From IMG/VR virus record IMGVR_UViG_3300005529_000024, positions 1 through 64,000 of that record: a DNA stretch of 64,000 nt. One strand, written 5' to 3'. Positions within the stretch are counted from its first letter, which is position 1. Each line of letters opens with the position of its first letter. Positions 10,737-43,623 of this stretch are shown piece after piece. Source of the DNA: a virus. Position numbers and translations under genes: made by a program. The notes beneath the pieces were generated by a model, which was not told the origin of the DNA, did not search any database, and saw nothing but the letters and a program-made list of their open reading frames with translations.

Positions 10737-10760
10737 ATAGTTATCTGCGGAGTTTGCTGT

Positions 10761-12926: not shown

Positions 12927-12928
12927 AT

Positions 12929-27732: not shown

Positions 27733-27972
27733 ATGGATACAAAGAAAGTTGTTGACAATTTACTAAAAGAAGATTATGCTGGTGATAGCCCTGCTTCAGA
27801 GTTCGAGAATGCTATTGATTACGTAGTAGATGAGCTTGTTAATAACATGCTACATCGCCTTATTTCCGAATCTAAGCGTATTGCAGAAGAGCATAACCTT
27901 CAGAATATCGATGATATTGAGACAGTGTTTATTGAGAAGTTGATCAAGAGAATTAATAAACTAGAAGTATAA
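27733..27972 (+). CDS. leader-bearing putative internal head protein
   Basis: N-term MDTKKVVDNLLKE. Confidence 0.65.
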   Translation: MDTKKVVDNLLKEDYAGDSPASEFENAIDYVVDELVNNMLHRLISESKRIAEEHNLQNIDDIETVFIEKLIKRINKLEV

Positions 27973-27973
27973 T

Positions 27974-28279
27974 ATGCCGACTCTTAACGAGATAAGAAAA
28001 GCTCATAAGCATTGTTCTTCAAATGCAAAAGAGATATCCGAGAGTAAATTCATTGGATGTTTTTATTGCATAAACATTCACTATACCAACTGGCCCTTTT
28101 ATGAGATGGTAGATGGTGGTGAGACAGTTATCTGTCCCATGTGTGGAATAGACTCAGTGATCGGGGATGCCTCTGGTATTCCTATTACCGATGAGCTTTT
28201 AATCACAATGCATCATTATTATTTCCGTCAGGGTTATGATGCCGATGGTAATCTTGTCCCAATAGAAGAAGATTTATAA
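27974..28279 (+). CDS. conserved Cys-rich zinc-binding protein
   Basis: GCFYC...ICPMCGIDSVIGDASG. Confidence 0.7.
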   Translation: MPTLNEIRKAHKHCSSNAKEISESKFIGCFYCINIHYTNWPFYEMVDGGETVICPMCGIDSVIGDASGIPITDELLITMHHYYFRQGYDADGNLVPIEEDL

Positions 28280-28297
28280 TCTAAACTTTGGGGTGTT

Positions 28298-28549
28298 ATG
28301 GATAACTGTCCGATCTGTGAGTTGACAAATTTAAGAGTTATAAAAATTGTAACGCCTACGCCTGTCGGTGAGCATAGCATTCTCTATCCTGAGATCCCTG
28401 CTACCAGATGTCTTAATTGTAATCAAATATTCATAGAGCTAGATGGTTTGGAAATGCGAGATAAAGCTGCCAGGGTCCATCTTGCAGATCCAGTGATTCA
28501 GAGAATTAAAAAGGGTGTTAAACTAAAGCGCGGTTGGGAGAGTAATTGA
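28298..28549 (+). CDS. YgiT/MqsA-type zinc finger protein
   Basis: CPIC...IPATRCLNCNQ. Confidence 0.55.
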   Translation: MDNCPICELTNLRVIKIVTPTPVGEHSILYPEIPATRCLNCNQIFIELDGLEMRDKAARVHLADPVIQRIKKGVKLKRGWESN

Positions 28550-29316
28550 TGGAAGAGAAACAGGGTTTGGTCTTAGTAAAGGGCGGTAAGCTTCTACACA
28601 CTGAATGGGTTTATGATCGTGAGAAGAAGAAAGGATCTTATGTTACCTCAGAGGTAACAAATACTGCTCCTGCTCTTTTATTCGAGTATTGCGATTTAGC
28701 CGAAGATGTTACGCTCAAAGATATCTTTCTTCTTTTAAATACGCATCTGGATATTTTTGATTCTATACTTGGAAATTTCTGCAAAGCGATTGTCACCGAA
28801 GCATTGACTGGTCCTGAGCCTGTTAAAGATACAATCGAGATTGAATACCTTGAGCTTTACAAAGTTTATCACGTAAACTTTGAAGATAAAGAGACATATG
28901 GTGGTGCTCATCCATATTTTGGCGGTATCGGATTTGAAGAGAAAGAAGACCGTTATGATAGCGGTGGAAATCTCATGCAGCTTAAGGGACAACGTATTAA
29001 TTGGGGCGTATCATTTAGTAAGCCAAGTTATCTAGCACAGTATCCTGTCAAGCTTAATAGGCAACTAAAATTTTATGACGATACTAGCGGTAGCCCTACT
29101 GCATTCCAAGAGATAGCCTGTTATGATGGTATATCATATACTCTTGGTGATATTCTTTATGGAATCCTTTGGGAATTATCTTTTTATGGAAATCCAGCAG
29201 AGACACAAGAAATGAAAGCGGAAATTGATCGTCGCGTTGAGGAAATCAAAAGTGGCGAGGCTGAATTGATTCCTTTAAATCTTGATGAATCTGATGACAA
29301 CGAAAATGGGTGTTAA
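28546..29316 (+). CDS. hypothetical protein
   Basis: 256-aa ORF; TLGDILYGILWELSFYG. Confidence 0.7.
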   Translation: MMEEKQGLVLVKGGKLLHTEWVYDREKKKGSYVTSEVTNTAPALLFEYCDLAEDVTLKDIFLLLNTHLDIFDSILGNFCKAIVTEALTGPEPVKDTIEIEYLELYKVYHVNFEDKETYGGAHPYFGGIGFEEKEDRYDSGGNLMQLKGQRINWGVSFSKPSYLAQYPVKLNRQLKFYDDTSGSPTAFQEIACYDGISYTLGDILYGILWELSFYGNPAETQEMKAEIDRRVEEIKSGEAELIPLNLDESDDNENGC

Positions 29317-29461
29317 GAAATAAACTGGGTAAGGTATATAAAACCAAACGACACTCTTGCAAACTTTGTAAGCCACACAAAATGGGTTTAGCGCCAAAGA
29401 AGACTGCTAAAGAGCGTCAAGAAGAAAAGTTAGCACAAAAAGAAATTGATTCGAGTTTAAA

Positions 29462-29689
29462 ATGAGTATAAAAAAGTTTGTTGATAACATGTTTGAAGGA
29501 TGGCAGTCTGTTGAACCAATAGACTCCGATAAGTTTCCTGATCGTGAGAGCCAAGGTCTTGAAGGTCCGTTTCGTTTAAGGTCTGGTCTCATTGTTTATT
29601 ATGATCGTAAGGAAGGTAAATATTACAATCCAAAAACTGATATGTATCTTTCTCATGATGAATACTCTCAGCATCATCTTTTAAGATAA
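29462..29689 (+). CDS. leader-bearing putative internal head protein
   Basis: MSIKKFVDNMFE; GLEGPF...YYDRKEGKYYNPKTDMY conserved phage motif. Confidence 0.7.
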   Translation: MSIKKFVDNMFEGWQSVEPIDSDKFPDRESQGLEGPFRLRSGLIVYYDRKEGKYYNPKTDMYLSHDEYSQHHLLR

Positions 29690-29696
29690 ATAAAAA

Positions 29697-29990
29697 TTGA
29701 ATCCCTCCAAAGAAATTCCAGACAGATCCAGTCGTGTAGTTCACTGTAAAAAACATAAATACGATGTTTATATCGGAAGACCATCAAAGTGGGGAAACCC
29801 CTTTACTATTGGTCGTGATGGCACACGAGATGAGGTAATCGCTCAGTATCGTAAATGGATACTTTTGCAACCTCATCTTATCGCTTCTCTTTCAGAATTA
29901 GTCGGTAAGGTACTTGGTTGTTGGTGCGCTCCAAATGCCTGTCATGGACATGTGCTTATTGATTTACTTAAGGAATTTGGTTTGGAATAA
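29697..29990 (+). CDS. DUF4326 family protein
   Basis: VYIGRPSKWGNPF...GKVLGCWCAPNACHGHVL. Confidence 0.85.
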   Translation: MNPSKEIPDRSSRVVHCKKHKYDVYIGRPSKWGNPFTIGRDGTRDEVIAQYRKWILLQPHLIASLSELVGKVLGCWCAPNACHGHVLIDLLKEFGLE

Positions 29991-29994
29991 TGTG

Positions 29995-30023
29995 TTGACG
30001 GGATTATCAAACCCTGGTATAAT
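29995..30023 (+). promoter_or_regulatory. sigma70-type promoter
   Basis: TTGACG-N17-TATAAT. Confidence 0.8.
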
Positions 30024-30050
30024 TAAGTTAAAATCCTACGGCGAGAATAA

Positions 30051-30245
30051 ATGATCCCAGAAGAGTTGATTAAAGAAATCGATATCGAATATGAAAAGCT
30101 GGCTATTAAAGAACATGAAGCTTATCTTCGAAGTATTCGGATTAATGCTTATATCGCTGGCTTGTGTGGGCGTTGCGGGGAGTATGATTCCTTGGGACAT
30201 CAATGCCAATGGCCCCCGAAACTTTTAAAGGTGTCGATAGGCTAA
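30051..30245 (+). CDS. hypothetical protein
   Basis: First ORF after promoter. Confidence 0.5.
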   Translation: MIPEELIKEIDIEYEKLAIKEHEAYLRSIRINAYIAGLCGRCGEYDSLGHQCQWPPKLLKVSIG

Positions 30246-30251
30246 ATTAAA

Positions 30252-30320
30252 CTCAGGTGGTGCCTGGAGGTGTTAGCCTTTTGCTAACTATCGCTAATAC
30301 AGGTGCAATACCTGAGTCCA
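30252..30320 (+). ncRNA. small tRNA-like RNA (7-bp acceptor-like stem + discriminator + CCA)
   Basis: CTCAGGT/ACCTGAG-T-CCA; inner GTGCCTG/CAGGTGC and GTTAGC/GCTAAC stems. Confidence 0.45.
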
Positions 30321-30331
30321 TTTAATATGGT

Positions 30332-30589
30332 GTGATGAGTATGAAAAGATCCGGAACTATTAAGATTGTTTACGAAACTCTGAAGCGTTTCTATAAAGCT
30401 GGTGTAATAAAATCTTATTATGATTCCGAGAGCGATGTCTTGTACGTTTCTTGTCTCAAGGATGCTCCATCATCTTATTGCGAAGAGGTAGATGATTTTC
30501 TGCTTATCGAACGTTCAATAGAAAGTAAACAGATAACAGGTTACAGAATTCTTAACTTCTCAAAGTTTAAAGAGATGGGAGAAATATAA
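30332..30589 (+). CDS. DUF2283-like protein
   Basis: YYDSESDVLYV...ITGYRILNFS. Confidence 0.6.
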   Translation: MMSMKRSGTIKIVYETLKRFYKAGVIKSYYDSESDVLYVSCLKDAPSSYCEEVDDFLLIERSIESKQITGYRILNFSKFKEMGEI

Positions 30590-30849
30590 TGGATAAGGCA
30601 TCAGAGCTTGGTGAATTATCTAAGGCTATCGAAACAATGAGCCATACTGTTGGAACGCTTAAAGCTGCAATTGCTAGTGCGACAATGGCTAGAAGTTATC
30701 TTCCTCTTGAAGGTAAAACAAAAGAGATGAATGATATTTTAGAAAAGTTTAAACATGTGCGCCAAACCTTGAAGGCTTTGAAAGATGATCTAGAGAATCT
30801 CACTGTAGATGTTCAGGATGAATATTATACGATAATGGGAGAAAAATAA
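30589..30849 (+). CDS. coiled-coil hypothetical protein
   Basis: Flanked by 20-bp junction repeats. Confidence 0.6.
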   Translation: MDKASELGELSKAIETMSHTVGTLKAAIASATMARSYLPLEGKTKEMNDILEKFKHVRQTLKALKDDLENLTVDVQDEYYTIMGEK

Positions 30850-31280
30850 TGGATTCCAATAATCTGATGTTTAATGATCTTCCTGAATCAGTCAAGAAAC
30901 TTACAAAAGATATTGGTATTCTAGAATCTGACATAGTAAAGATATCTCATAATTCTGATGCTGGCGCTTGGTTTGTTTATACATTAAACGTCTATCTTGT
31001 TTTTTCCAGGTTGAAAAAACTCATTGAGTCTCCAGCATTTGAAGGTACAATTTTCGCTGTGGATAATAAACTCGTAATTGGGTTTTATCCTGAAGACGAA
31101 GAATCAGATGCTGATGATAAGTTTATACGTCTTGCTACAAAACATGGAGCTAAGTTTTACAGAAGAGATACACTGGAATGGATTGTCTTAGATCAAAAAG
31201 ATAATGCCATGTGGAATGAAGTTTATGCTTCAAAGAAGGATGCAGCTAAACGATATTGTGAGGTTCATAAACTAATATGA
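30849..31280 (+). CDS. hypothetical protein
   Basis: ORF track. Confidence 0.6.
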   Translation: MDSNNLMFNDLPESVKKLTKDIGILESDIVKISHNSDAGAWFVYTLNVYLVFSRLKKLIESPAFEGTIFAVDNKLVIGFYPEDEESDADDKFIRLATKHGAKFYRRDTLEWIVLDQKDNAMWNEVYASKKDAAKRYCEVHKLI

Positions 31281-31579
31281 GTCATAAGAGCAGAGTAGAC
31301 GAACTTGTAACTAGAGCATTATTTGAAGCGATAACTGATAGTGAAACTGATAGCAAAGATGAAGTAGTAACATATCGGTATATAAATTTCACGAAGTCTG
31401 GTGATACTGGCAAGACAATGATCTGGAGTTGTAAGAACAATAAGAGTGGTGCTGAGTTGGGAGTCGTAAAGTGGTTTCCCTCTTGGCGTCAATATTGTTT
31501 CTTTCCTACAACACAGATAGTTTTGAGTTCTGGTTGTTTACAAGATATACGAGATTTTATTGATCAAAAATTACACTAG
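31277..31579 (+). CDS. hypothetical protein
   Basis: LGVVKWFPSWRQYCFFP...CLQDI conserved phage motif; leader-like N-term ending LFE. Confidence 0.65.
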   Translation: MSHKSRVDELVTRALFEAITDSETDSKDEVVTYRYINFTKSGDTGKTMIWSCKNNKSGAELGVVKWFPSWRQYCFFPTTQIVLSSGCLQDIRDFIDQKLH

Positions 31580-31651
31580 CTCGCCTACCATGTGTAGAAG
31601 GAGTAACGGGGTCGCTCATTCGGGCGTCTCCAGCCAATTTTGGAGAATGAT

Positions 31652-31846
31652 ATGGGTCTAAAAGATACTGTTGATGAGATGTTAAGCGGAGAAGATAGTT
31701 TCGAGAGAGACTTTCGAGATGCAGAGACTCGTATCCATGATGCCGTAAGGGTTTTGTTAGAGAAAGAATCAAAGAAGCTTGCCAGAAAGTATAAAGATTA
31801 CACTGATGCTGAATTGTATAATAAGCTGCGTAAATCGTTAGGATAA
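31652..31846 (+). CDS. leader-bearing putative internal head protein
   Basis: MGLKDTVDEMLSGE; GGAG RBS at 31642. Confidence 0.6.
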   Translation: MGLKDTVDEMLSGEDSFERDFRDAETRIHDAVRVLLEKESKKLARKYKDYTDAELYNKLRKSLG

Positions 31847-31876
31847 TTCTAGACACTCATACAATAGGAGATTTAT

Positions 31877-32467
31877 ATGAGTTTGAAGGATACTGTAGAA
31901 AAGATGTTCGAGGATGATGAACATAAAGAACTTGTTGCAGCTTATGATGAATCTGATATCACTGATAGCCATATCGCATATCTTCTTGAAGAGCCTTTAG
32001 ATCATGAAGAATTTTTTGACGACGATGAAGAGCTAATGGATATTCGTTCTCTTAGTAATAGTAATGAAGACTTTATCAGAAAGGTTAAAGAAGCAGACTT
32101 ATTTGATAAGCTCGAACGTTTAGCACGAGAACATGCATGGGCTGATCCAGATCTATACAGCATAGCTTGGGATGATGAGAAAGAAAATATAACCGCTACT
32201 ATCAATGAAATGAATCCTGATGGTCACTGGTACGCTCATTCTGAAGCTCTTACTTGGCGGCGTGTTCCTGGTTGGAAGAGATTCGATGCCTCTGATGGGC
32301 AAGAATTTCTTATGAATGTTCTTCCTAATACATCTAGTCTTACTTATAAGCTTTATAAGACAGGACCCAAAGAATTACAACTTATGGTATGGCATCATGA
32401 TGCCCCTACTGGAGAATCGATGGTTATTGAAGTTGATCATGGGGATAATGAACCAGAACAGGATTAA
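31877..32467 (+). CDS. leader-bearing acidic putative internal head protein
   Basis: MSLKDTVEKMFE. Confidence 0.7.
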   Translation: MSLKDTVEKMFEDDEHKELVAAYDESDITDSHIAYLLEEPLDHEEFFDDDEELMDIRSLSNSNEDFIRKVKEADLFDKLERLAREHAWADPDLYSIAWDDEKENITATINEMNPDGHWYAHSEALTWRRVPGWKRFDASDGQEFLMNVLPNTSSLTYKLYKTGPKELQLMVWHHDAPTGESMVIEVDHGDNEPEQD

Positions 32468-32469
32468 AA

Positions 32470-32724
32470 ATGGATGCAAAGAAAGTTGTTGATAATCTTC
32501 TGAATGAAGATGAAAGTGATATGACTTATCACGAAGATTATGAAGAGACTGTCGAACGATTAGTACGTGGCATCCAAAAAGCTATCGTAGCTGAAGCAAC
32601 ACGATTACATAACTCCTATAATCTTCGTGATTCTCTTACTAAAGAAGATATAATGTTCAATCTTCTAGATCATGTTTTAAATCTTGATAGCCGAGAATGG
32701 AATACTAATTGGAGAGAGAAATAA
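32470..32724 (+). CDS. leader-bearing putative internal head protein
   Basis: MDAKKVVDNLLNE. Confidence 0.65.
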   Translation: MDAKKVVDNLLNEDESDMTYHEDYEETVERLVRGIQKAIVAEATRLHNSYNLRDSLTKEDIMFNLLDHVLNLDSREWNTNWREK

Positions 32725-33020
32725 TGGATACAAAGAAGATTGTCGATCAGCTATTAGAAGCTGAGATCGGAATCGCTCCTGGTCTTGAATTCTCTAAGCC
32801 TGAAGATTCCAAGATGCGTCGGTTTGTTCTTGTTCGTGATGAGGATGTCCATAATAAGAGTGGTGAGGGTATCGTCGCTGAAGGTGTTGAGTTCTCAGAT
32901 GGTACTGTCGCTATGCGTTGGCTGACTAAGACAGCGAGCACTACAATTTTTAAAAACGTGGCTGAGCTTGAAAAAATTCATGGTCATGAAGGAAAAAGTA
33001 ACGTAAGGTGGATTGATTAA
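32724..33020 (+). CDS. leader-bearing protein with conserved phage domain
   Basis: MDTKKIVDQLLE; RDEDV..SGEGIVAEGVEFSDG...IHGHEG. Confidence 0.7.
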   Translation: MDTKKIVDQLLEAEIGIAPGLEFSKPEDSKMRRFVLVRDEDVHNKSGEGIVAEGVEFSDGTVAMRWLTKTASTTIFKNVAELEKIHGHEGKSNVRWID

Positions 33021-33308
33021 ATGAGAATCAAAGAGACGATAAATAGTTTATTTGAAGCGGACTTTTATGATGTGCATTCCAAGGTTATGCACATCCTTGA
33101 TATGTACGGTCTGACAAGAGAGAGCTTCATGTCGAAGACTAAGAATGCAGACAAGCATATCAATGAGCTTGTTAAGGTCTTAACAGAAGCATCTTCTGAT
33201 GAAGATAAAGATTCAGCTATTCGTACTTTTTGTTCTGTACTTCGTGATTCAGGTTATCATAACACTATCGTTGATAAAATAGAGTCTGATTTAATTGATG
33301 AGTTCTAA
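33021..33308 (+). CDS. leader-bearing putative internal head protein
   Basis: MRIKETINSLFE. Confidence 0.65.
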   Translation: MRIKETINSLFEADFYDVHSKVMHILDMYGLTRESFMSKTKNADKHINELVKVLTEASSDEDKDSAIRTFCSVLRDSGYHNTIVDKIESDLIDEF

Positions 33309-33310
33309 AA

Positions 33311-33640
33311 ATGAAACTGATAGACCTTGAGCCTAGATTATTTCGTTTAGCGGATATAAATGGAGACTCTGCGTCTTTAGAAAGGGTAGACAGTTTAGCT
33401 GAAGCTCAAGGCATTAGATTTGTTTGTCCAAAATGCTTCGTTAGTAATAATGGTCCTATAGGCACTCATTATATCATATGTCTTTTTAGAGATAAAGGCA
33501 TCCCAAATAATATAATGCAAACCATAGCTAGATGGTTTGTATCCGGTAAAGATTTTTCTGATCTAACTCTAACACCATCCATACTTCTTCCTGATAATTG
33601 CATGTGGCATGGTTTTATAACTAATGGTATGATTTTATGA
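33311..33640 (+). CDS. DUF6527-like metal-binding protein
   Basis: FVCPKC...LTLTPSI...CMWHGFITNG. Confidence 0.6.
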   Translation: MKLIDLEPRLFRLADINGDSASLERVDSLAEAQGIRFVCPKCFVSNNGPIGTHYIICLFRDKGIPNNIMQTIARWFVSGKDFSDLTLTPSILLPDNCMWHGFITNGMIL

Positions 33641-34572
33641 GCAATATACTATACGTGGACCAAGAGGAGCGCGTATCAAAGATAACTCCTGGAAGTGAAG
33701 AGGCTTCACCTCCTGCGCTTATCTCTCCAGAGGGTGATACTATATTTATCGATTATCATGTAATGCATGATGAAGCATTGTACGCACTTGGATTTAGATA
33801 CGGTATCGATGAGGCAATCAAGAAACATAAATGGGTTCGTGTTGTATCGTTTGATGAATTTCAACTCCCTGAATTAACTGTAAAGTATCTTGGTCTAGTC
33901 GATGACTTCATCAGCACCTATGGCTACATGAATTCTGATAAGCTCATAATCGATTTCTACGCTGGTGTTAAACTATATACTATTGAGATCTCTAAAGATG
34001 ATTATGACGATAGAGGATTGATTGGTGCTGTTAGAAATGAACTACGTCACCATGAACAGAATGCGCTTCTTGCTAGATGCCCCAAACCTATAATCACTTC
34101 TATCATGAAGTCAATGGGTATGGAGAGTGGGAAAGCTGTTAAAGAAGCTGTAGAGAAATTGTTTGAGCGAGAGAAAATTCTTCCTACGCATTTCTCTATC
34201 CTTTCTGCTCAGAAGGGTCTTTTACATGATGAGGAAGCACATAAGTCTTTGTTGCGTACTCTAACTAATTCTGGCTTTAAAAATATTATTCCTGTCGATG
34301 GGCATTATGGGAATCCGGAGAAATCAGTTATAGTTGTTCATACAGGTTCTGCTGCAAATAAAAAGAAGCTTGAGAATATCGCTCTTAATATTTTCGATCA
34401 AGAATCTATTATACATTCTGATGATTTAAAAAATGTTCTTGTGTATAATGATGGACAGAAACTTTCAGGTGCTGGTATAGAGATAGACGATACATTTAGC
34501 GATTTCTATACCGTCTTACCAAATGGTATTAAATTTAGATTAGGTATTAATCATTTTTCACATGTCGGATAA
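33637..34572 (+). CDS. two-domain protein; C-terminal T3-type S-adenosylmethionine lyase-like domain after an internal leader
   Basis: ILSAQK, AHKSLLRTL, DGHY, PEKSVIV, FDQESII, LVYNDG align in order with T3 SAMase motifs. Confidence 0.6.
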   Translation: MSNILYVDQEERVSKITPGSEEASPPALISPEGDTIFIDYHVMHDEALYALGFRYGIDEAIKKHKWVRVVSFDEFQLPELTVKYLGLVDDFISTYGYMNSDKLIIDFYAGVKLYTIEISKDDYDDRGLIGAVRNELRHHEQNALLARCPKPIITSIMKSMGMESGKAVKEAVEKLFEREKILPTHFSILSAQKGLLHDEEAHKSLLRTLTNSGFKNIIPVDGHYGNPEKSVIVVHTGSAANKKKLENIALNIFDQESIIHSDDLKNVLVYNDGQKLSGAGIEIDDTFSDFYTVLPNGIKFRLGINHFSHVG

Positions 34573-34573
34573 A

Positions 34574-35248
34574 ATGGATATTAAAAGCTATATAGATAAG
34601 TTGTTTGAATCTGGTGATATCTTTTTAGCTGAAAAATTAGTTCTGAAGGATTATAAAGATTTTTCAAAGCTAGTCGCACAAGCTTACTTAGCTAGACCTG
34701 ATTACGAATCTCAGTATGCATCTTCCTGGAAAGCTTTAATCCCGTTCATTGAAAAGATGTTTAATCAGATCTCTTCGAAGGTTGATGTTGAATTTACAGA
34801 TGCTGATCCCTACAAATCCTCGAAAGCATTACGAAGGGATATCGAGCAGAACAGTAGGCTAAAAGTTTGGACTGGCGCATCTAATCATCCGATTTTTACT
34901 GAAGAACAAAACTGGAAGTTCCGAGCGATCCATGATTATATGACACATGCTACTGGTAAGCATCCTTTCTCGCTTAGGGGAGAAATTGGTGCATACAATA
35001 GACATGTAAAGACTATTCCTGTCGAAGGAAGACTTGCATTATTCACAGAGGTAATCGGTCAGGTATCTACATATTTCGAGACTTCATCGCATCCACCACA
35101 GAAGATTTGCAAGCTCTGGGGTTTTGATTACGTAAACGTTGGAAACGTGGATGAAGAAGAATATAAGAAGAACTTCCCAGATCAAGAAGATAAACCAGTT
35201 CCTGATGAAGATAAAATAACTACTGATGATCAAGAAGGTAATGTATGA
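34574..35248 (+). CDS. leader-bearing conserved phage protein (FRAIHD motif)
   Basis: MDIKSYIDKLFE; NWKFRAIHDYMTH...GEIGAY...ALFTEVIGQ. Confidence 0.7.
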   Translation: MDIKSYIDKLFESGDIFLAEKLVLKDYKDFSKLVAQAYLARPDYESQYASSWKALIPFIEKMFNQISSKVDVEFTDADPYKSSKALRRDIEQNSRLKVWTGASNHPIFTEEQNWKFRAIHDYMTHATGKHPFSLRGEIGAYNRHVKTIPVEGRLALFTEVIGQVSTYFETSSHPPQKICKLWGFDYVNVGNVDEEEYKKNFPDQEDKPVPDEDKITTDDQEGNV

Positions 35249-35673
35249 GATACGGTTGGCTTAATCCTAAAGGAGAATTTCTTTCTCTTGAAGGAAGTAC
35301 ACATGATAAGTTCATCCAGAAACATGGTTTCAGTGATCCTAGACCTGAACAGGCAGTTCGTGATGCGATTAATGCTGGTTGGGTTCGAATGCATGCTAGC
35401 GATTTAAACAAAGAGCTTAGCTTTCAATTTAATGGATCGGATGAATCTTACAGGCACATAGGATATTTCATCAGCGATCATCCTGAGACTAGTAATTATC
35501 TTATCGCGCTTGATTCTCCAGATGGCTTTGTTAATGAATTGGACCCTGAAGATATTATAAAGTATGGCGCTAAACGTGCAGCTAAGCGTATATTAGTTGG
35601 TGCAGGTTTTGGTGCTAACTATGGCGAAAGCAAGACAGTAAAAAATTACGTTGACAATTTATTTACGGATTAG
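35245..35673 (+). CDS. GWxxPxG-family protein with C-terminal leader-like motif
   Basis: GWLNPKGEF...GWVRM; ends TVKNYVDNLFTD. Confidence 0.65.
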   Translation: MRYGWLNPKGEFLSLEGSTHDKFIQKHGFSDPRPEQAVRDAINAGWVRMHASDLNKELSFQFNGSDESYRHIGYFISDHPETSNYLIALDSPDGFVNELDPEDIIKYGAKRAAKRILVGAGFGANYGESKTVKNYVDNLFTD

Positions 35674-35676
35674 AAA

Positions 35677-36063
35677 ATGGGAATAAAGAAAACTATTGAT
35701 GAGATGTTCGAAGCCAAAAAGAAGATGAAAGCATTGGTTCGGTATGGGACCAATAAGCTCGAACCTGATACCTGGAGAAAAGTTCTCTACCATTCTGAGG
35801 ATGAAGAACTTCTGCATTCTGAAGCTGAGCGATTGAATAAGAAATATCCTGATCTTGATTTCAAGGTTGAAGATGATGAGATCGATGAAGCATCTGATTG
35901 GTTTGTATACGATGTCTTTCTTCATGGTAAAGAGATTGATACTCTCTTCTTCTCTACAGAACAAGACTTAGAAGATCTGAAACGCAGTCTTGTAAATCAT
36001 GATGGATATGATCCGGAAATTGAAGTAAAACTATACAAGGGGAAGAAGAAGCATAGTAAATAA
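35677..36063 (+). CDS. leader-bearing putative internal head protein
   Basis: MGIKKTIDEMFE. Confidence 0.7.
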   Translation: MGIKKTIDEMFEAKKKMKALVRYGTNKLEPDTWRKVLYHSEDEELLHSEAERLNKKYPDLDFKVEDDEIDEASDWFVYDVFLHGKEIDTLFFSTEQDLEDLKRSLVNHDGYDPEIEVKLYKGKKKHSK

Positions 36064-36074
36064 GCGAGGAGGGA

Positions 36075-36266
36075 ATGCAGATGGAACATAAGTTCACAAC
36101 AATTGAAGAATTGATTTTGATGGGGGCCGATACTGAGGAATGGAACCTACCATTAAAACAAACTGTGATCGTTTCTGAAGACGGTAGTGTTGATCTTCCC
36201 AATGGATCTGAAGTTGATGGACCTTGTGAGCTAATCGCAAAACTCTTTCCTCATATGGAGCAATAG
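36075..36266 (+). CDS. hypothetical protein
   Basis: GGAGG RBS. Confidence 0.5.
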   Translation: MQMEHKFTTIEELILMGADTEEWNLPLKQTVIVSEDGSVDLPNGSEVDGPCELIAKLFPHMEQ

Positions 36267-36267
36267 A

Positions 36268-36780
36268 ATGAGTTTACTGAAGAAATATTTCTCAGTACTA
36301 TCTGAAGCTGGAACATTTCTGAATGGCTGGATTAATCCCTCTGGTGATTTTGTTGATGAGCCTGTGTCAGATCCTATTACTGCTGATGATATCAAGACCA
36401 ATCTTCAAAAGTTAAAGTCTGGTTGGATTAAAGTTACGACTCCCTCACAAAAAGTTCTCGGTTTTGAATTCTTTGATACAACAGCAAAGAGTCTTTCAAA
36501 TATAGAAATATTCCTTGTTAAGCATCAAGCTGTTATTGATGCTAGTATGCTTTATCTTCTAGCGGTTGATAGTGATCATGGTTATATTATTTCACTTAAT
36601 GATGCTATCAAGTTAGGTGTCAAGCAAGCCTTGGATAAAGAGAGCAAAGAGGCACATTCAAGTGAAGACTCAATTCCTAAGACTGAATCTACGGTTAATT
36701 CTGATCTTGATTCTCTTTTAGCTGAACTCGCAAGGAATGAAGGAAAAGTTTCTGAAGTAATGAGCAAGATTTTTTCTTAA
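36268..36780 (+). CDS. GWxxPxG-family protein
   Basis: GWINPSGDF...GWIKV; paralog of 35245. Confidence 0.65.
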   Translation: MSLLKKYFSVLSEAGTFLNGWINPSGDFVDEPVSDPITADDIKTNLQKLKSGWIKVTTPSQKVLGFEFFDTTAKSLSNIEIFLVKHQAVIDASMLYLLAVDSDHGYIISLNDAIKLGVKQALDKESKEAHSSEDSIPKTESTVNSDLDSLLAELARNEGKVSEVMSKIFS

Positions 36781-36789
36781 GGATATGAA

Positions 36790-37221
36790 ATGGGAATAAG
36801 AGCTACAAGTTATACCGGATCAATCATTGATGGTTTATATGAGGCTGAAGTACCAGTTCCGAATATCTCACTGAAGATTGAACCAGTCACAGCACAAAAT
36901 TGGGATGAAGATCCATCTACTTGGTCGCCTACTCCTTATGTCTTGATCATCTCCCCAGAAGAGAATTTCTCTCTAGATAAACATGTGCTTAATGGTCCTA
37001 TTCTAAAGTATCTAAACGAGCTTGATTTTAAGACGCATAGAGAACATGGATCTATTACTGGTAGAGGCTTGATACAAGATGAATATGTTGAGGTAAAAAA
37101 TTATCATAAGTCTGAGATTTGGAAATTCGTTTCAGCGAATAAAGATACACTCAATACATTAAAGGAAGAGATCGTTGAGATCTTATCTGATCTTAGATAT
37201 AATCTTCAAGTGGAATCCTAA
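36790..37221 (+). CDS. hypothetical protein with leader-like N-terminus
   Basis: ...SIIDGLYE. Confidence 0.6.
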   Translation: MGIRATSYTGSIIDGLYEAEVPVPNISLKIEPVTAQNWDEDPSTWSPTPYVLIISPEENFSLDKHVLNGPILKYLNELDFKTHREHGSITGRGLIQDEYVEVKNYHKSEIWKFVSANKDTLNTLKEEIVEILSDLRYNLQVES

Positions 37222-37445
37222 TGAGCATTAAAGAAACAGTTGATAGGATGTTCGAGCATCAGTATGGTCTTGTGCAGGGTCCTCTTGATGATGAGGAAAA
37301 TACGTGTCAAAACCCTTGTGATCCTAATTCTGATTGTGAGAAATGCGCTGATTACTGGCAACGTATGAGTGACGAAGGTATGTGGGATAAGCAGAAACAT
37401 CGTTGGACCGATAAAGGTTGGGATGAAATCTTTAGGCACTTATAA
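37221..37445 (+). CDS. leader-bearing Cys/Trp-rich protein
   Basis: MSIKETVDRMFE. Confidence 0.65.
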   Translation: MSIKETVDRMFEHQYGLVQGPLDDEENTCQNPCDPNSDCEKCADYWQRMSDEGMWDKQKHRWTDKGWDEIFRHL

Positions 37446-37460
37446 ATAAAAGGTTAAAAA

Positions 37461-37970
37461 ATGATACTATCTTTAGAGCAAAGATTTTTTGTAATTACAC
37501 AATCTGGTGATGAGGATCTCTTCTTAGTAGATCTATCCGTACCACAAGGCAATACTGGAAATGGCTACGTGGTTCAGAAAACAGATCTGTGCTTCATGGC
37601 AAGCAATCGTGGTCCTGGTTCTGTGGTAATCCACTTCTATGATAGCGACGATGGATTAAACTTCAGTTCTCTTGTTTCTGCTACCATCGTTGATGGTGGA
37701 TCTCTTCCTGTTATCGTCTCAACCTCCAAACGATTCTTGAAGTGTACAGGAAATGGTTTACAAGCTCGCTTTGATATGTTTGCTATTGGTGATTCTAAGA
37801 GTTTCGGTAATGAAGCTTTTGCTGATTTCACACAGCTTTTGGATATCGTTAGTCGATCAATCGTTAATTATAGCATCGGTGGTACTGCTAAACAATCTCG
37901 TGTACTTAATTATGGCGTTGGTTCGACAGTAGTACAATTGCGTTTAATTAATACAGAAGCACATAGCTAA
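37461..37970 (+). CDS. putative structural beta-sandwich protein, paralog of 38520
   Basis: FYDSDDG...TIVDGGS...TSKRFL. Confidence 0.6.
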   Translation: MILSLEQRFFVITQSGDEDLFLVDLSVPQGNTGNGYVVQKTDLCFMASNRGPGSVVIHFYDSDDGLNFSSLVSATIVDGGSLPVIVSTSKRFLKCTGNGLQARFDMFAIGDSKSFGNEAFADFTQLLDIVSRSIVNYSIGGTAKQSRVLNYGVGSTVVQLRLINTEAHS

Positions 37971-37980
37971 AGGATAAAAA

Positions 37981-38490
37981 ATGCCACCACCTAAAGATCC
38001 TAATAGATATAAAGAATATTGTGAAAAATTTATGGGAAATACTAATGGATCTTTTGGTGCTGGTATCCAGAAACCATCTCTTATAGGTAACAAAAACGCA
38101 TCTGGGCATAAAGGTGAAAAACATTGGAAATGGAATCCGACAATACCTACAAACGTTAGATGGAGTAGAGCGGCACAACATTTTTGGAAACGTACTGGAA
38201 TAATTATTACCGAAGAAATGTATAACGAACGTTGTAAATATAACTCTAATTGTTGTGAAATTTGCGGTCTTCCTGAAAGTCAAAATATAATAAATGGAAA
38301 GAATATAGCATTGAGTTTTGATCATGACTATATAGCTAAGCGTTGGAGAGGACTTCTTTGTTCTTTCTGTAATCAACATAGACTTCCTTTTTATGAAAGA
38401 CGAAGTAGGCAGTTTAAGAAAGATATTACTATAGAAGAATATCTTGATGAAACTAATTGGCCTCTTCCATATCAGACAAATGCAATATAA
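37981..38490 (+). CDS. endonuclease VII-type HNH endonuclease (probable homing endonuclease)
   Basis: CEICG...LSFDHDY...RGLLCSFCN; NUMOD-like KGEKHWKW. Confidence 0.75.
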   Translation: MPPPKDPNRYKEYCEKFMGNTNGSFGAGIQKPSLIGNKNASGHKGEKHWKWNPTIPTNVRWSRAAQHFWKRTGIIITEEMYNERCKYNSNCCEICGLPESQNIINGKNIALSFDHDYIAKRWRGLLCSFCNQHRLPFYERRSRQFKKDITIEEYLDETNWPLPYQTNAI

Positions 38491-38519
38491 GCTTGTAATA
38501 TTTTTAAAGGAGTAATAAC

Positions 38520-39017
38520 GTGAGAATTGTTTTTGACCACAAAAGATTTTTTGCTCCACCAAAGGGTGAGGCTGGAGGCTACGGTGGTAGTGGTGGTAAT
38601 ACCAACCGTCTCTTTAAGTTGGATCTAGCACAGGCACAAGGTAGCGTCCCAGATATCACGAATTATCGTACTGAGAATCCTCCAAAGGTTATCTACTCTT
38701 CATTTAATGCTCAGCTAACCAATGTTGGTCATACATCATTAAACACGCAATTAGATGGATTTAGTCCAGCTTCTGGTGTTGCTCCTGCTACCATGGAAGT
38801 TAAATTCCGTGAGTCAGATGATGGTACTACCTGGGATGATATCGCTGGTACAGATAATACTATCGTTCCTTTTGGTTCTGTGAATTTTGATTTCACCACA
38901 CAGAAGAGATACATTGAATTGTATTGGGTGTCTGGTAATTCTTCTGTTGATGTATTCCTAGCACATGATACCGAGACTGACATTGCTGGTGGTTACAGTA
39001 AAGATTCAGTTGGTTAA
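38520..39017 (+). CDS. putative structural beta-sandwich protein, paralog of 37461
   Basis: FRESDDG...TIVPFGS...TQKRYI. Confidence 0.6.
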   Translation: MRIVFDHKRFFAPPKGEAGGYGGSGGNTNRLFKLDLAQAQGSVPDITNYRTENPPKVIYSSFNAQLTNVGHTSLNTQLDGFSPASGVAPATMEVKFRESDDGTTWDDIAGTDNTIVPFGSVNFDFTTQKRYIELYWVSGNSSVDVFLAHDTETDIAGGYSKDSVG

Positions 39018-39070
39018 TGTTCACTAAATCTCAATGTTCACATTTTGTGAACAAGAGAAAAAGATGAACA
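39018..39070. repeat. symmetric four-site array TGTTCAC-N10-TGTTCAC-N5-GTGAACA-N10-ATGAACA
   Basis: Read directly in intergenic DNA. Confidence 0.75.
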
Positions 39071-39095
39071 CTCCTAAAAGAATGGATTAAGAAAA

Positions 39096-39359
39096 ATGAA
39101 CACAAAGAAAATTGTTGAGAATCTACTTAATGAATCTACAGTTGAACCGTTTACTAACGCTTCTTGGGTCGGTGATTATAAGGAAGACATGAAGTTTGTT
39201 CATGCACAGCTTAAGCCTATCTATGATAGATTCAAGGATCGTGCTCGCATGGATCAAGAAGAATTAGATAATATGTTTAACGAACTTGAGCATAGAATTG
39301 ATGAGAATCTATTCAGTGCCTACCAAGAAAAGAATGCCAAAACGAGTAAGAAAGGTTAA
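39096..39359 (+). CDS. leader-bearing putative internal head protein
   Basis: MNTKKIVENLLNE. Confidence 0.65.
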   Translation: MNTKKIVENLLNESTVEPFTNASWVGDYKEDMKFVHAQLKPIYDRFKDRARMDQEELDNMFNELEHRIDENLFSAYQEKNAKTSKKG

Positions 39360-39361
39360 AA

Positions 39362-40024
39362 ATGTTAAAAGAATATATTGATAGTATGTTCGAAAGAGAT
39401 GAAGAAGATAGCACATACGAAAAGCTTTGTCCTAAATGTGATTCACCTATGGAGTTACTTCATCCTGATTATTGGACATGTATGCGCTGTGATGCTACAG
39501 TTCCTCATAAGGAAGTTGATGAGGCTGAGCCTAAGAATCGTGCAACCAGGACTGGATGGAGAGAACCTGAAGGAGATGATGAGGATGATTTTGATCTGAA
39601 GGTTCTTCATCGTGGTTACAATCCTGATCGTCTTACTCTTTCTATAAGTGGTAAGCCATATACTTTCTATGCTGAGCCGGAAGTCATTGAGAGATTCCAT
39701 AAGATCTTTAATCTCGGATCGAAGGGTCAAGCTCTTGCTTATTTGAAAGATAACGATATGAAGGATCGTATCATTGTCATGGAGTTTGATAAAGACATTG
39801 ATGCTGGAACAGCACAGTCTCTTCTGGATACTCTTGCTGATAAGCACCTTATTCCAAGTGTGGATTTCAGCACAAAGACAGCTTCAGCAATCATCTACTA
39901 TGCAGATCCAATTGATTTAACCCATTATAACCTAATCCGCAATAGTGTAAAGCTTGAAGGATTTACTGCTGAAGACGTTACTAAACCTAAAGCTAAGTTC
40001 TTTATGATGAAGGTTCATAAATAA
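39362..40024 (+). CDS. leader-bearing multidomain protein
   Basis: MLKEYIDSMFE; zinc ribbon CPKC..CMRC. Confidence 0.65.
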   Translation: MLKEYIDSMFERDEEDSTYEKLCPKCDSPMELLHPDYWTCMRCDATVPHKEVDEAEPKNRATRTGWREPEGDDEDDFDLKVLHRGYNPDRLTLSISGKPYTFYAEPEVIERFHKIFNLGSKGQALAYLKDNDMKDRIIVMEFDKDIDAGTAQSLLDTLADKHLIPSVDFSTKTASAIIYYADPIDLTHYNLIRNSVKLEGFTAEDVTKPKAKFFMMKVHK

Positions 40025-40446
40025 TGAACAAGGATTATTACTCAATACTCGGTGTACAGCCTGGTGCTTCTACCGATGAAATCAAAAAGGCGTATCATAA
40101 GAAAGCTCGTGAGCTTCATCCTGATTTAAATCCATCTGCTCCATTAACCAGGATTCAAGAAGTGAATGAGGCTTATGATGTATTAAGCAGCAAGCGACGT
40201 TCCATTTATGATCATGAACGTAAGCCAGCTACGCAACAAGATTATCCGAGTAATGGTTTTGATCCTAGTCTTTATGTGGACAAGTGGCATAAAGAATCCA
40301 AGTATTATAAGACTCACATTACTAAAGAGCAACCGAATTGGATGAAAGCAGAGGAAGAGCGTCTAGCAAAAGAATTTGCGAAGAAGGAAGATATCCGATC
40401 ATCCATTGGTAACATTTTTAAGAAGACTAAACCTAAAGGTAAATAA
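40024..40446 (+). CDS. DnaJ-type J-domain protein
   Basis: DYYSILGV...EIKKAYHKKARELHPDLN...VNEAYDVLS. Confidence 0.9.
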   Translation: MNKDYYSILGVQPGASTDEIKKAYHKKARELHPDLNPSAPLTRIQEVNEAYDVLSSKRRSIYDHERKPATQQDYPSNGFDPSLYVDKWHKESKYYKTHITKEQPNWMKAEEERLAKEFAKKEDIRSSIGNIFKKTKPKGK

Positions 40447-41196
40447 ATGAGCATAAAAGACACTGTTGAAAAGATGTTTGAATCAGGCGATCTTAGAGAG
40501 GATAATATTTTCGATCTGCCTGAAGGGAATTTTACTTTAACATTCGATACTAATAAGCTCTTAGAGCTATTTGATTTACCAAAGGTTGATGATCTTGAAG
40601 CGATTACCATAGACTATTGGCCTAGTGATAGTGATCTATTAAATACAAGTAAACTTGATGTGTCCCAAGACGACGATGGTAATTTTATTGATGCTGATGA
40701 GAATCCTTTACCAGAAGAAGTGATCGATGATATAAAAAGAGCTATAATGGATGCTGTGTATTCTGGTACTATGGGACGTTATCATAAGCGCATTATATCT
40801 ACGCTTGAAGAATCATTATCTACATTTCAAGATTATAAATACGAGTATTTCCCTCTGACGGATGATGGCGAGAGAACAGCTACTGGTGTTGCTAAAGGTA
40901 TTCTAAATTTTGAAGTCTCGTTTGATGAAACCAAGATTGAATGCGCTCCGGATATTGTTCACATCATAAACGATTGCATTAATGGGGTTGGTGAGTTTTA
41001 TGCGACTGATGATCTTGAAGGTGATTCTGTCGAAGAGTTTGCTAAGTCTCGTTTTCACTGGTTGAACAGATATTGGGATATCTATGGTGGTGGAAAGCCA
41101 CAAGTAGATACTGACAATATCGATGATTTCGATTCTGAATATTTCAGGACCTTATTAAAAGAGATCGAAACAGAACATAATGTCAAGCTAACCTAG
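40447..41196 (+). CDS. leader-bearing acidic putative internal head protein
   Basis: MSIKDTVEKMFE. Confidence 0.7.
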   Translation: MSIKDTVEKMFESGDLREDNIFDLPEGNFTLTFDTNKLLELFDLPKVDDLEAITIDYWPSDSDLLNTSKLDVSQDDDGNFIDADENPLPEEVIDDIKRAIMDAVYSGTMGRYHKRIISTLEESLSTFQDYKYEYFPLTDDGERTATGVAKGILNFEVSFDETKIECAPDIVHIINDCINGVGEFYATDDLEGDSVEEFAKSRFHWLNRYWDIYGGGKPQVDTDNIDDFDSEYFRTLLKEIETEHNVKLT

Positions 41197-41255
41197 TTTT
41201 ATTTTTTACTAAGTATTATAAAGTACCTAATCGGTAATATCATTGGAGTAAATAA

Positions 41256-42890
41256 ATGTTATCACAAGAACAACTTCGCATGAGACAGCTTGCTCGTACT
41301 TATGGATACAACTATCCTAATCTGATTGAGCAGGACAGTCTGAACACAAACCCAGAAGGTGGTCAGTATATTAAACTTTCCGAGCTTTCTGTCAATGATC
41401 AGTTTAGAATTGCTTCAAGCTGGAAAGCGGATTTCAATACTGCTCTTTCTATCGCTGCTACGCAATTGCTCTCTTTTGGTGGATTGAAACAGCCAATGCT
41501 CGTTCGGGCAAAAGATAATGGTAACATTACTGTTGCGACTGCCACTGGTAGCGAGCACGTAATCGCTATGAGTGAAGCAGATGTAATCTTCGTTCTTCCT
41601 CTTACCTCACGTCCTGCAAAAGATGGTGGAGTTAAAGATTCGTCTATTGACTCTATGGACTGGAACGTTCTTCCAAGTGGGGAAAAGCCTGTTAGTGCCA
41701 AGGGTGGACAGAAGATCTTCGATAGTAAGTCTGGTAAGGCTAATTTAACTGAAGATGCTAACCTTACTCCTGGTGCTGTTTTCAAGCTTCCTGGAAAAGA
41801 TGACGAATACTCTCTTGTCTCTTCTGACGATAAAGAGGTTACATTCCGTGGTAAGGACGGTAGTAAGTATCGGCTTCCTAAAGATAAGTTTCAAGCTACT
41901 CCTGTAAAGGAATCAAAAGGACGAAGAATTTCTCGCCTTGCTGAGATCCATGCTGGAGATGTGTTTAAATTTGTTGAGCCTTTTGCTGAGGGAGTTGACA
42001 TCAACAAAGTCTATCTTAAAGTTGAATCTAAGAATGGACGTAACGTTGCATATGTTTCTCCTCAAGGTAATCTAGATACTGTCCCTCTTCGTTATTCGAA
42101 GCACATTAAAGTTGAGAAGATCAACGATGAACTTTCAATGGAAGAGAGAAAAGATTTTAGTACACTGAGACAGCTTCATTCTGGCGATCAGTTCTGGTTC
42201 TTATCAAAAGACCGGGAATTCACTGAGACTCCTTATACTGTTCAGGAAAATGATTTTGTACAACAGCATATCCGTGTTCAGAGTCCAACCGATTCTCTTA
42301 AAGAAAATCGTTCTTGGTTTAGGGTGAATCATGATCATGCAGGGAACATTCTTGTTATCCGGAAGAGTCAGGTTACTGAGAAAGTAAAGGATGACAGCAA
42401 TTACGTTCTACTTCGTGATCGTAAGAATCTTTATGAGCAGGATGAACAGCAATATTTCCCATTGTCAGATCTAGCTGTAAACGATACCTTTAAGGTCAAG
42501 ACGGCTACTGCATCGAATTATCAGCCTATGTCAATGCCTACTATGCAGTTCTTGACATATGGATCATCAAAGATGCTGTATCTTGTTAAGGCTAAGTCTG
42601 GCGCTGGTATTACTGTTGCGACTGCTAATATGGGCGATATTACTATCCCTATGGCTGATGCACAGCGTATCAAGGTCATGGTCTTTACTCAGAGACCTGT
42701 TGCCACAGATGGTGTTAAAGATCCATCTATTACTCAGATGAAGTGGGATGTAGGGCCAAAGGCTGAAGCTCCTCATACTGATTGGAATGCTCATCCAGAA
42801 GAGAATCAAAATAAAGAAATCTCTGGTAAAGATCCATTCGATACGGGCGCTGAAGGATCTAACTTTCCAAAGGGTGGAAAGATCGACTAA
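41256..42890 (+). CDS. repeat-module protein (about five small beta-barrel modules), probable head protein
   Basis: LSELSVNDQF / LTPGAVF / LAEIHAGDVF / LRQLHSGDQF / LSDLAVNDTF repeats. Confidence 0.65.
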   Translation: MLSQEQLRMRQLARTYGYNYPNLIEQDSLNTNPEGGQYIKLSELSVNDQFRIASSWKADFNTALSIAATQLLSFGGLKQPMLVRAKDNGNITVATATGSEHVIAMSEADVIFVLPLTSRPAKDGGVKDSSIDSMDWNVLPSGEKPVSAKGGQKIFDSKSGKANLTEDANLTPGAVFKLPGKDDEYSLVSSDDKEVTFRGKDGSKYRLPKDKFQATPVKESKGRRISRLAEIHAGDVFKFVEPFAEGVDINKVYLKVESKNGRNVAYVSPQGNLDTVPLRYSKHIKVEKINDELSMEERKDFSTLRQLHSGDQFWFLSKDREFTETPYTVQENDFVQQHIRVQSPTDSLKENRSWFRVNHDHAGNILVIRKSQVTEKVKDDSNYVLLRDRKNLYEQDEQQYFPLSDLAVNDTFKVKTATASNYQPMSMPTMQFLTYGSSKMLYLVKAKSGAGITVATANMGDITIPMADAQRIKVMVFTQRPVATDGVKDPSITQMKWDVGPKAEAPHTDWNAHPEENQNKEISGKDPFDTGAEGSNFPKGGKID

Positions 42891-42899
42891 GGAATCAAA

Positions 42900-43319: not shown

Positions 43320-43335
43320 CTAAAGGGAATACAAA

Positions 43336-43590
43336 ATGGATATAAAGAAAGTCGTTGACGGCATATTAGAGACGCATTATGGTGATCTTGACCGAGGCGA
43401 AGCTGCTAGGGAGGCTAAAGCTCGTTTCACTGAAGCTGTATCTGATATGCTGAATAAGTTGGAAGAAATTCAGGATGATCTCAAAACAGCTTGGAGCAAG
43501 GCTCATTATGAGGAAACTCGGTTAGCTACGTATAAGCTACGTGACGCTATTGTGTTGATAAAAGAATTACGTGAATCATTTTGGGAATAA
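43336..43590 (+). CDS. leader-bearing putative internal head protein
   Basis: MDIKKVVDGILE. Confidence 0.65.
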   Translation: MDIKKVVDGILETHYGDLDRGEAAREAKARFTEAVSDMLNKLEEIQDDLKTAWSKAHYEETRLATYKLRDAIVLIKELRESFWE

Positions 43591-43623
43591 ATATGAACTA
43601 AAAGGATTTAACTTTTTAGTGGG

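Follow-up and report, generated by a model that had tools for sequence, protein, structure and literature searches.

We report that a 311-residue open reading frame (ORF) at positions 33637 to 34572 of a 64,000-nucleotide stretch of viral DNA (the window, positions 1 to 64,000 of IMG/VR record IMGVR_UViG_3300005529_000024) ends in a domain that, judging from its predicted structure, very probably has the fold and an intact active site of an S-adenosylmethionine (SAM) lyase. The domain directly follows an internal copy of a short leader that also heads 15 genes of the same phage. SAM lyases are known as early-expressed counter-defence enzymes. We tentatively read this protein as a two-part precursor, with an orphan part (residues 1 to 166), an internal leader for loading into the phage head (residues 167 to 177) and a monomeric SAM lyase of the T3 type (residues 178 to 311), a reading that we place slightly below an even balance. 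The source is an uncultured soil phage with a record of 174,395 bases (estimated 82% complete, 38.5% G+C), in which nearly every gene lies on the plus strand. The elements of the ORF are as follows.

33637..34572, plus strand: 311-residue ORF (P0001), with N-terminal part, internal leader and SAM lyase domain
33637..34134, plus strand: orphan N-terminal part, residues 1 to 166
34033..34146, plus strand: variable junction, residues 133 to 170 (RNELRHH...GKAVKE), 38 residues, in place of which the relative P0003 has 2 (KN)
34135..34167, plus strand: internal leader copy, residues 167 to 177, AVKEAVEKLFE (17.8 bits on the leader profile)
34165..34167, plus strand: predicted cleavage after Glu177 (LFE/REKILP)
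34168..34569, plus strand: predicted mature T3-type SAM lyase, residues 178 to 311 (134 residues, starting REKILP), nine strands and two helices
34300..34326, plus strand: GHYGNPEKS, with Gly222, Tyr224, Glu228 and Ser230, from alignments
34399..34407, plus strand: QES, Gln255-Glu256-Ser257, equivalent to Svi3-3 Gln104-Glu105-Ser106 and T3 Gln94-Asp95

The first-pass annotation had placed a T3-type SAM lyase domain behind an internal targeting leader, and its coordinates, frame and translation are correct. Positions 34135 to 34569 encode AVKEAVEKLFE followed by REKILPTHFSILSAQ..., with the stop codon at 34570-34572, and the segment 34135-34572 corresponds to residues 167 to 311, the C terminus of the ORF. 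At its other end, the start of the ORF shares 4 bases with the stop of ORF 33311-33640, which lies upstream.

Taken alone, the sequence evidence for a lyase identity is marginal. The domain matches phrog_2226, the T3 gp0.3 family, with an E value of 9.9e-5, and a profile search of 1.84 billion representative proteins returned 60 relatives at E ≤ 1e-3, 26 at E ≤ 1e-10. When 40 of the 60 were scanned against Pfam, 22 listed PF23780 (S-AdoMet_lyase) and seven reached its gathering cut-off of 28 bits (28 to 34.4 bits), which ties the subfamily to the family through its members; 11 listed DUF3293 on the same stretch. The conserved blocks in an alignment of 19 sequences of short relatives (A1) are SA[QE], GHYGxPExS, QESxxHS and DFY[TS]. 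The annotation had also listed a series of motifs that T3 gp0.3 would share in the same order. When that protein (NC_003298) was aligned by MAFFT, the series held for ILSA (LVSA in T3), H..L..TL (H..M..TL), GHY (GCY), EKSVIV (EKTVRV), QES (QDC) and LVY (LVY) and broke down at FYT, which is present here and has no convincing T3 counterpart.

An AlphaFold2 model of the domain, computed from the 19-sequence alignment without templates, reached a mean local confidence score (pLDDT) of 91.5 and comprises nine strands and two helices in addition to the leader helix. By published description, the T3 SAM lyase is a monomer that forms a barrel of nine strands with two helices, and Svi3-3 is trimeric (bioRxiv 10.1101/2023.02.27.530186). 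Foldseek, which the annotation had suggested as a check, returned only two matches in the PDB at E ≤ 1e-3, both of them the T3 SAM lyase (8BB1 and 7OCK), the best being 8bb1_E with an E value of 2.6e-5 and a template modelling (TM) score of 0.64. In VIA-align comparisons, the T3 enzyme gave Z 14.7 with a root-mean-square deviation of 2.5 Å over 127 residues (8BB1) and Z 13.5 with 2.9 Å over 130 (7OCK); the fold thus agrees with T3, and the similarity to Svi3-3 (6ZNB and 6ZM9) is weaker, at Z 7.8 to 7.9 (6.8 Å over 98 and 4.3 Å over 93 residues). The best unrelated entry had Z 7.2 (2.9 Å over 81). Thirty predicted viral structures matched the domain at E ≤ 1e-3, three of them annotated as SAM hydrolases, and no SAM-AMP lyase entry was among the matches listed by Foldseek or VIA-align.

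Active SAMases share very few residues, which in Svi3-3 are Gly56, Tyr58, Glu69 and Gln104 (Guo et al. 2021, PMC7877911). According to the same source, Svi3-3 Glu105 and Ser106 also line the active site, T3 Glu68 is the equivalent of Svi3-3 Glu69, and this Glu serves amino group and ribose binding (PMC7877911). In the domain studied here, Glu228-Lys-Ser230 aligns with T3 Glu68-Lys69-Thr70, Ser230 corresponding to Svi3-3 Ser71; Glu228 is kept in at least 90% of the 19 aligned relatives and Gln255 is invariant in all 19. The Tyr, Glu and Gln positions are invariant in all seven sequences of the MAFFT alignment with T3 gp0.3. In that alignment GHY (222-224) pairs with T3 GCY (55-57; Svi3-3 Gly56/Tyr58), but hhalign pairs it with a different T3 sequence, GLY.

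Several results weigh against the lyase assignment. The match to PF23780 (E 1.6e-5; the domain scores 25.3 bits and the full protein 23.0) stays below the cut-off, a single-sequence search of PDB sequences found nothing (best E 0.83), the profile of the 19-sequence alignment ranked the T3 SAMase first among PDB sequences with an E value of only 0.77, and hhalign against T3 gave a probability of 19.7%. In addition, the loop between Tyr and Glu is 6 to 7 residues shorter than in T3 and Svi3-3, so that for Tyr224 the equivalence is based on the alignment and on strand position. A T3-type SAM lyase domain directly behind the leader, as the first reading of the sequence had claimed, is nevertheless supported by the fold, the conserved residues and the family context.

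The leader is 12 to 13 residues long (for example, MSIKDTVEKMFE and MDTKKVVDNLLKE) and defines a cluster of genes of 64 to 494 codons.

27733..45599, plus strand: cluster of 15 genes starting with the leader K-x-[TIV]-[VI]-[DE]-x-[ML]-[FL]-E

Over the whole genome the leader pattern gave 18 matches, 17 at 27.7 to 44.1 kilobases, all on the plus strand, and twenty codon-block shuffles of the genome gave 0 to 4. Fifteen of the 17 clustered matches lie 2 to 7 residues past the start Met; the two others are that in ORF 33637 (residue 168) and one at the extreme C terminus of ORF 35245-35673. Because the pattern had been fitted by eye, we trained a scoring matrix on nothing but the 15 N-terminal copies. 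With it, the internal site scored 17.8 bits, more than any other non-training site in the six reading frames (the runners-up had 16.1 and 14.2), and none of the 174,357 minus-strand windows scored by the matrix reached 12 bits. The leader codons differ at synonymous sites, which argues for selection on the peptide. Behind the leaders lie mutually unrelated proteins, and in the five with PHROG matches each match begins past the leader. On sequence grounds, the leader is a real, portable tag.

In phage T4, the internal proteins and Alt enter the prohead core by means of a 10-residue N-terminal capsid targeting sequence (PMC3012670, PMC9026906), of which residues 4 and 7 are reported to serve targeting and residues 8 and 10 processing (PMC9026906, PMC5694885). 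The gp21-type proteases cut after Glu (PMC9026906, PMC5694885), and Asp at position 10 of the T4 leader blocks cutting while loading is kept (PMC9026906). The presence of an S77 protease and a Gp23-type capsid protein in this phage lends indirect support to packaging by a similar route.

52619..54052, plus strand: prohead protease, T4 gp21-type Peptidase_S77 with a fused scaffold-like coiled-coil tail (PF03420, E 7.5e-26)
54141..55517, plus strand: Gp23-type major capsid protein (PF07068, E 6.1e-62)

The leader genes lie clustered upstream of these two T4-type head genes. Like T4-type protease sites, 13 of the 15 leaders end in hydrophobic-x-Glu, and one of the remaining leaders has Asp in place of Glu. 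The protease also matches phrog_207 (E 4.5e-52), and its N terminus (52619-52645) reads MYLKENLLE-9, with Leu-Leu-Glu closing at residue 9, which parallels LIE-9, the site that T4 gp21 has near its own N terminus (PMC9026906, PMC5694885). The phage also encodes tail sheath and gp19-type tube proteins.

In the course of events that we propose, the protein would be made together with the head genes, the leader would carry it into the scaffolding core of the prohead, and the gp21-type protease would cut after Glu177 (LFE/REKILP), leaving 7 residues ahead of the domain's first strand. The 134-residue enzyme would remain in the filled head and be ejected with the DNA into the next cell, where it would split SAM to methylthioadenosine and homoserine lactone; the loss of SAM would starve type I and type III restriction and BREX (bacteriophage exclusion) before any phage gene is read. 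Loading, cleavage, ejection and enzyme activity are all steps that we infer, and we regard it as nearly, if not quite, an even prospect that the protein is packaged and cut. A complex prediction for the protease-scaffold protein with residues 150 to 311 scored 0.00 and gave no verdict.

Outside this phage, packaging finds its strongest support in a precedent from the cultured T4-like cyanophage S-CREM2. Its ORF6, annotated as a SAM hydrolase, was reported in 2023 from CsCl-purified virions with 19 unique peptides and 26.3% coverage, and the authors propose that it enters with the DNA (PMC10665884); that paper mentions neither a leader nor capsid targeting. We found ORF6 to be homologous to the lyase family over a domain at residues 35 to 125 (hhalign probability 91.9%, E 6.9e-7) and to start with MKDFDSFLEE, a T4-like leader (OR473000). 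Among the 18 ORFs covered by our check (gp1 to gp18; OR473000, bases 3837-13331), the leader is also present at the N terminus of gp13 and gp14 and at residues 14 to 25 of gp12. All four leader proteins (gp6, gp12, gp13 and gp14) are in the virion proteome, and the leader is absent from 12 non-virion neighbours and from the virion-listed gp15 and gp17. The four copies read MKDFDSFLEE, MKDLHSFLTE, VKRFDAFLTE and ...LRFASFMAE; their carriers are the gp6 SAM hydrolase, a Cas9-like nuclease (gp12), gp13 and a kinase (gp14).

Other observations speak against packaging. The leader is internal here (residues 167 to 177 of 311), whereas T4-type leaders are N-terminal, the position covered by the T4 tests (PMC9026906), and its 17.8 bits are lower than 14 of the 15 leave-one-out scores of the N-terminal leaders (range 10.7 to 29.3). 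Acidic isoelectric points (4.1 to 6.4) were computed for 22 of 23 ORFs, including all 15 leader proteins (4.1 to 5.8). The capsid protein's own N terminus gives no profile-positive leader; by this protein, Listeria phage LIS04 and Bacillus phage SP-15 come nearest among cultured phages (39% identity), and LIS04, the closest, shows no shared leaders. Finally, the T4 late-promoter motif is not enriched, with 10 copies found against 5.9 expected, a number reached in 5 of 100 shuffles.

Some of these observations would fit a SAM lyase that stays in the cytoplasm and is never packaged, an account that is possible but in our judgment rather unlikely. The leader would then be a binding helix, a translation or regulation signal, or a recombination scar by which the phage can shuffle its genes, and its internal copy would mark a gene fusion. 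T3 uses its own SAM lyase as an early cytoplasmic protein (PMC8406200), and the acidic proteins and the lack of a late-promoter signal point the same way; the junction is the one place where two known variants differ, as for a recombination hot spot, and ORF 35245-35673 ends leader-like directly before the leader of the next gene. Such an account is at odds with a leader that is kept at the protein level with synonymous variation, sits at the extreme N terminus of 15 genes and ends in a cuttable hydrophobic-x-Glu in 13 of them, these genes lying on the head-gene strand upstream of the S77 protease. It also has to contend with S-CREM2, where an analogous leader marks four proteins, all of them in the reported virion proteome (PMC10665884).

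The domain is predicted to cleave SAM, which we consider probable. It seems improbable that it cleaves another sulfonium compound instead, for example, as an anti-CRISPR, SAM-AMP (a second messenger in some type III CRISPR systems), or that it mainly binds a host protein as the T3 SAMase binds MetK. Catalytically impaired T3 SAMase mutants reportedly keep partial anti-BREX activity (bioRxiv 10.1101/2023.02.27.530186), in line with a binding role, but the N-terminal T3 tail that contacts MetK is not conserved here, so that inhibition of the host SAM synthetase does not follow. As to other substrates, SAM-AMP lyases are described as trimeric and PII-like, and the model is far nearer to the monomeric T3 enzyme (Z 14.7) than to the trimeric Svi3-3 (7.8 to 7.9). 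No DNA methyltransferase of families PF02086, PF01555 or PF00145 was found in the 174-kilobase record, which, within the limits of a record that is 82% complete, fits a phage able to afford SAM depletion.

The part that precedes the leader is an orphan. Residues 1 to 166 have no Pfam or PHROG match, a search of 5.8 billion proteins yielded only the window's own proteins and P0003, and an Atlas search gave no usable match. In the AlphaFold2 model of the full-length protein, this part is poorly predicted (pLDDT 27 to 76, too poor for a structure search) and is followed by a low-confidence linker (residues 142 to 157) and a helix (residues 165 to 179) that holds the leader; the lyase domain retains pLDDT values of 93 to 98. 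We rejected the N-terminal part as a paralogue of ORFs 35245 and 36268 (BLASTP E 0.23, hhalign probability 0.2%), and a MAFFT placement of these two ORFs on the lyase domain was judged a forced alignment and dropped.

P0003, a relative of 275 residues from elsewhere, is identical to P0001 over the first 132 and the last 141 residues. It keeps the frame and the leader (AVKNAVEKLFE, its residues 131 to 141) despite a difference of 36 residues at the junction, and this preservation of leader, frame and fusion argues against an assembly artefact. The comparison shows the junction to be the labile spot. It contains the only nearby internal Met codons of P0001 (M157, M160 and M162), all of which P0003 lacks, arguing against internal initiation as a general route to the enzyme. 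A separate lyase started at Met160 or Met162 (34114 or 34120) with a normal leader (MESGKAVKEAVEKLFE), the 311-residue frame being a lost-stop by-product, is thus quite unlikely, for although Met162 lies as far from the leader core as does the first ATG of ORF 34562 from its own and the T3 gene has an annotated in-frame internal initiation, neither ATG follows a clear ribosome-binding sequence, and P0003 has leader and domain in frame without the three Met codons.

No relatives came up in 50,697 phage records searched at both the DNA and the protein level, whether with the region, the full-length protein or the relative P0011, and neither a word-indexed protein search with the lyase domain nor a related-locus search in viral contigs with P0001, P0005 and P0004 found anything. 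The whole stretch is contained in one soil sequencing run, which is probably its source; a mine metagenome yielded just three short pieces of the flanks, none of them covering ORF 33637-34572, and no RNA run is among those listed for this stretch.

The gene that follows the lyase also bears a leader.

34562..35248, plus strand: next gene, with its own leader and a phrog_3170 domain (E 1.3e-16)

Its true start is likely the ATG at 34574 (MDIKSYIDKLFE), one base (34573) past the lyase stop codon, and its phrog_3170 domain has a His-rich motif (HDYMTHATGKHPF). Eight of the 60 relatives carry a homologous phrog_3170 domain on the same chain, downstream of the lyase domain, and when 49 window ORFs were tested against the 60 relatives, only ORF 34562-35248 matched. 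Thus, a domain pair that is fused elsewhere is represented here by two tagged genes, the lyase and its neighbour. Among the 60 relatives, the lyase domain stands alone in 17 (up to about 220 residues), heads longer proteins (241 to 1793 residues) in 34, is internal in 8 and is C-terminal in P0003 only. Further sequence follows the domain in 42 of them (proteins of 241 to 1793 residues), and the partner domains in some include NUDIX, GNAT and ART-PolyVal.

Phage polyvalent proteins are predicted to be packaged (Iyer et al. 2017, PMC5512222); that paper mentions neither SAMase nor S-adenosylmethionine nor DUF3293, and our literature search showed no link of SAMase to polyvalent proteins or DUF3293. 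We offer as a speculation, and a doubtful one, that this phage has taken apart a polyvalent protein, the lyase and its phrog_3170 partner, elsewhere one injected polypeptide, each being tagged separately. The leader would serve both as cargo tag and as cut site, and one internal tag would load two modules that the head protease separates within the prohead; in the cell that produces the phage, the enzyme might stay quiet until it is cut.

DUF3293 (PF11697) and PF23780 match the same stretch in P0008, P0010, P0012, P0013, P0016, P0039 and P0060, and this overlap indicates that DUF3293 is probably a SAM-lyase-like family. Many enzymes of this kind have probably escaped annotation, as the subfamily with the GHYGxPExS...QES signature falls mostly under the Pfam cut-off and shares ground with DUF3293. 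The T3 RefSeq record (NC_003298, 901-1359) calls gp0.3 a "SAM-dependent methyltransferase", a misnomer that is repeated in phrog_2226 and that can conceal SAM lyases in annotations.

Leader-like segments were also seen elsewhere in the window. Looser copies may head ORFs 43624, 47219, 48755, 49630 and 36790. ORFs 35245-35673 and 36268-36780 are paralogues of each other (E 2e-10) and end leader-like, in KNYVDNLFTD-stop and SEVMSKIFS-stop, with the final Glu absent; the end of the former directly precedes the N-terminal leader of the next gene. These ends may be uncut C-terminal tags or recombination remnants. Two candidates were not used, namely the N-terminal KKAFTAILLE of the capsid protein, which is leader-like by eye and scores less than 2 bits on the leader profile, and the scaffold segment KIVKELVEKLAS, which reaches only 3.5 bits. 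A 632-residue ORF at 50432-52330, first taken for a portal protein, has no portal match and is a patchwork of three small PHROG matches; it has an internal leader-like segment, MKESIDKLFAEM, at residue 52 (8.2 bits).

The window also encodes a DnaJ-domain protein (40024-40446), a RelA/SpoT-like nucleotidyltransferase (46152-46874) and, directly after the capsid gene, a trypsin-like peptidase (55664-56206). Sigma-70-like promoters and terminators occur at shuffle level.

Already in print are accounts of SAM lyases, of the T4 capsid targeting sequence and of a SAM hydrolase associated with virions; our literature search returned no paper joining capsid targeting with a SAMase, the S-CREM2 paper being the only relevant one. 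New here are the internal leader behind an orphan 166-residue part and the split pair of lyase and phrog_3170 genes, and particular to this phage are the different leader consensus in a lineage far from T4 and the size of the tagged gene set. Were the lyase carried in the particle, it would act before the phage genes are read, when restriction and BREX decide the outcome, and SAM depletion would join T4 IPI* and P1 Dar among the injected counter-defences. The observations suggest that head-loading tags can sit inside a protein. They offer a leader and a cut site open to direct testing, in a phage lineage far from T4, and would connect virion delivery with the SAM-lyase-like domains of large polyvalent proteins. 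If confirmed, an internal tag loading two modules would be useful for putting foreign proteins into phage heads.

Compared with T3 gp0.3 (8BB1, 7OCK, PF23780), the domain shows a near whole-domain fold match with conserved Glu and Gln, but it has only about 16 to 23% identity, scores below the Pfam cut-off, has a shorter Tyr-Glu loop and lacks the MetK-binding tail. Moreover, gp0.3 is the product of the first early gene of a podophage, whereas here a C-terminal domain lies behind a leader in a myophage head-gene region. Svi3-3 (6ZM9) and the SAM-AMP lyases (candidate AcrIIIB4) belong to the same superfamily and share the conserved Glu and Gln, but unlike the domain described here they are trimers with active sites between subunits, and Z is only 7.8 to 7.9 for Svi3-3.

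A short tag carried by unrelated cargo is also known from Alt and the internal proteins of T4, among them the injected restriction inhibitor IPI*. The T4 cargo tag is cut after Glu by the gp21-type protease, and injected cargo acts against host defence (PMC3012670, PMC9026906). At least 15 putative cargo genes are tagged here, versus a handful in T4; the leader has 12 to 13 residues and a different consensus, the predicted cargo is acidic whereas the T4 internal proteins are basic, and one copy is internal. In giant phages, head proteins (SPN3US gp50, gp53 and gp54; phiKZ) have propeptides of 124 to 127 residues that are removed at x-x-Glu by a gp21-related protease (PMC5694885), so that a cut 177 residues into a head protein would not be unusual. 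Their sites are A-x-E or S-x-E, no shared leader is reported for them, and homology to them was not detected here.

The relatives of the domain head or sit inside multidomain proteins, as in polyvalent proteins (Iyer et al. 2017), but this phage encodes the domains separately, with a leader for each gene. S-CREM2 ORF6 shares with P0001 a homologous domain, a T4-type myophage as its source and a short leader ending in Glu directly before the domain. They differ in that ORF6 (414 residues) has an N-terminal leader of another consensus and a domain followed by a long basic tail, whereas P0001 is acidic, with its leader internal and its domain C-terminal.

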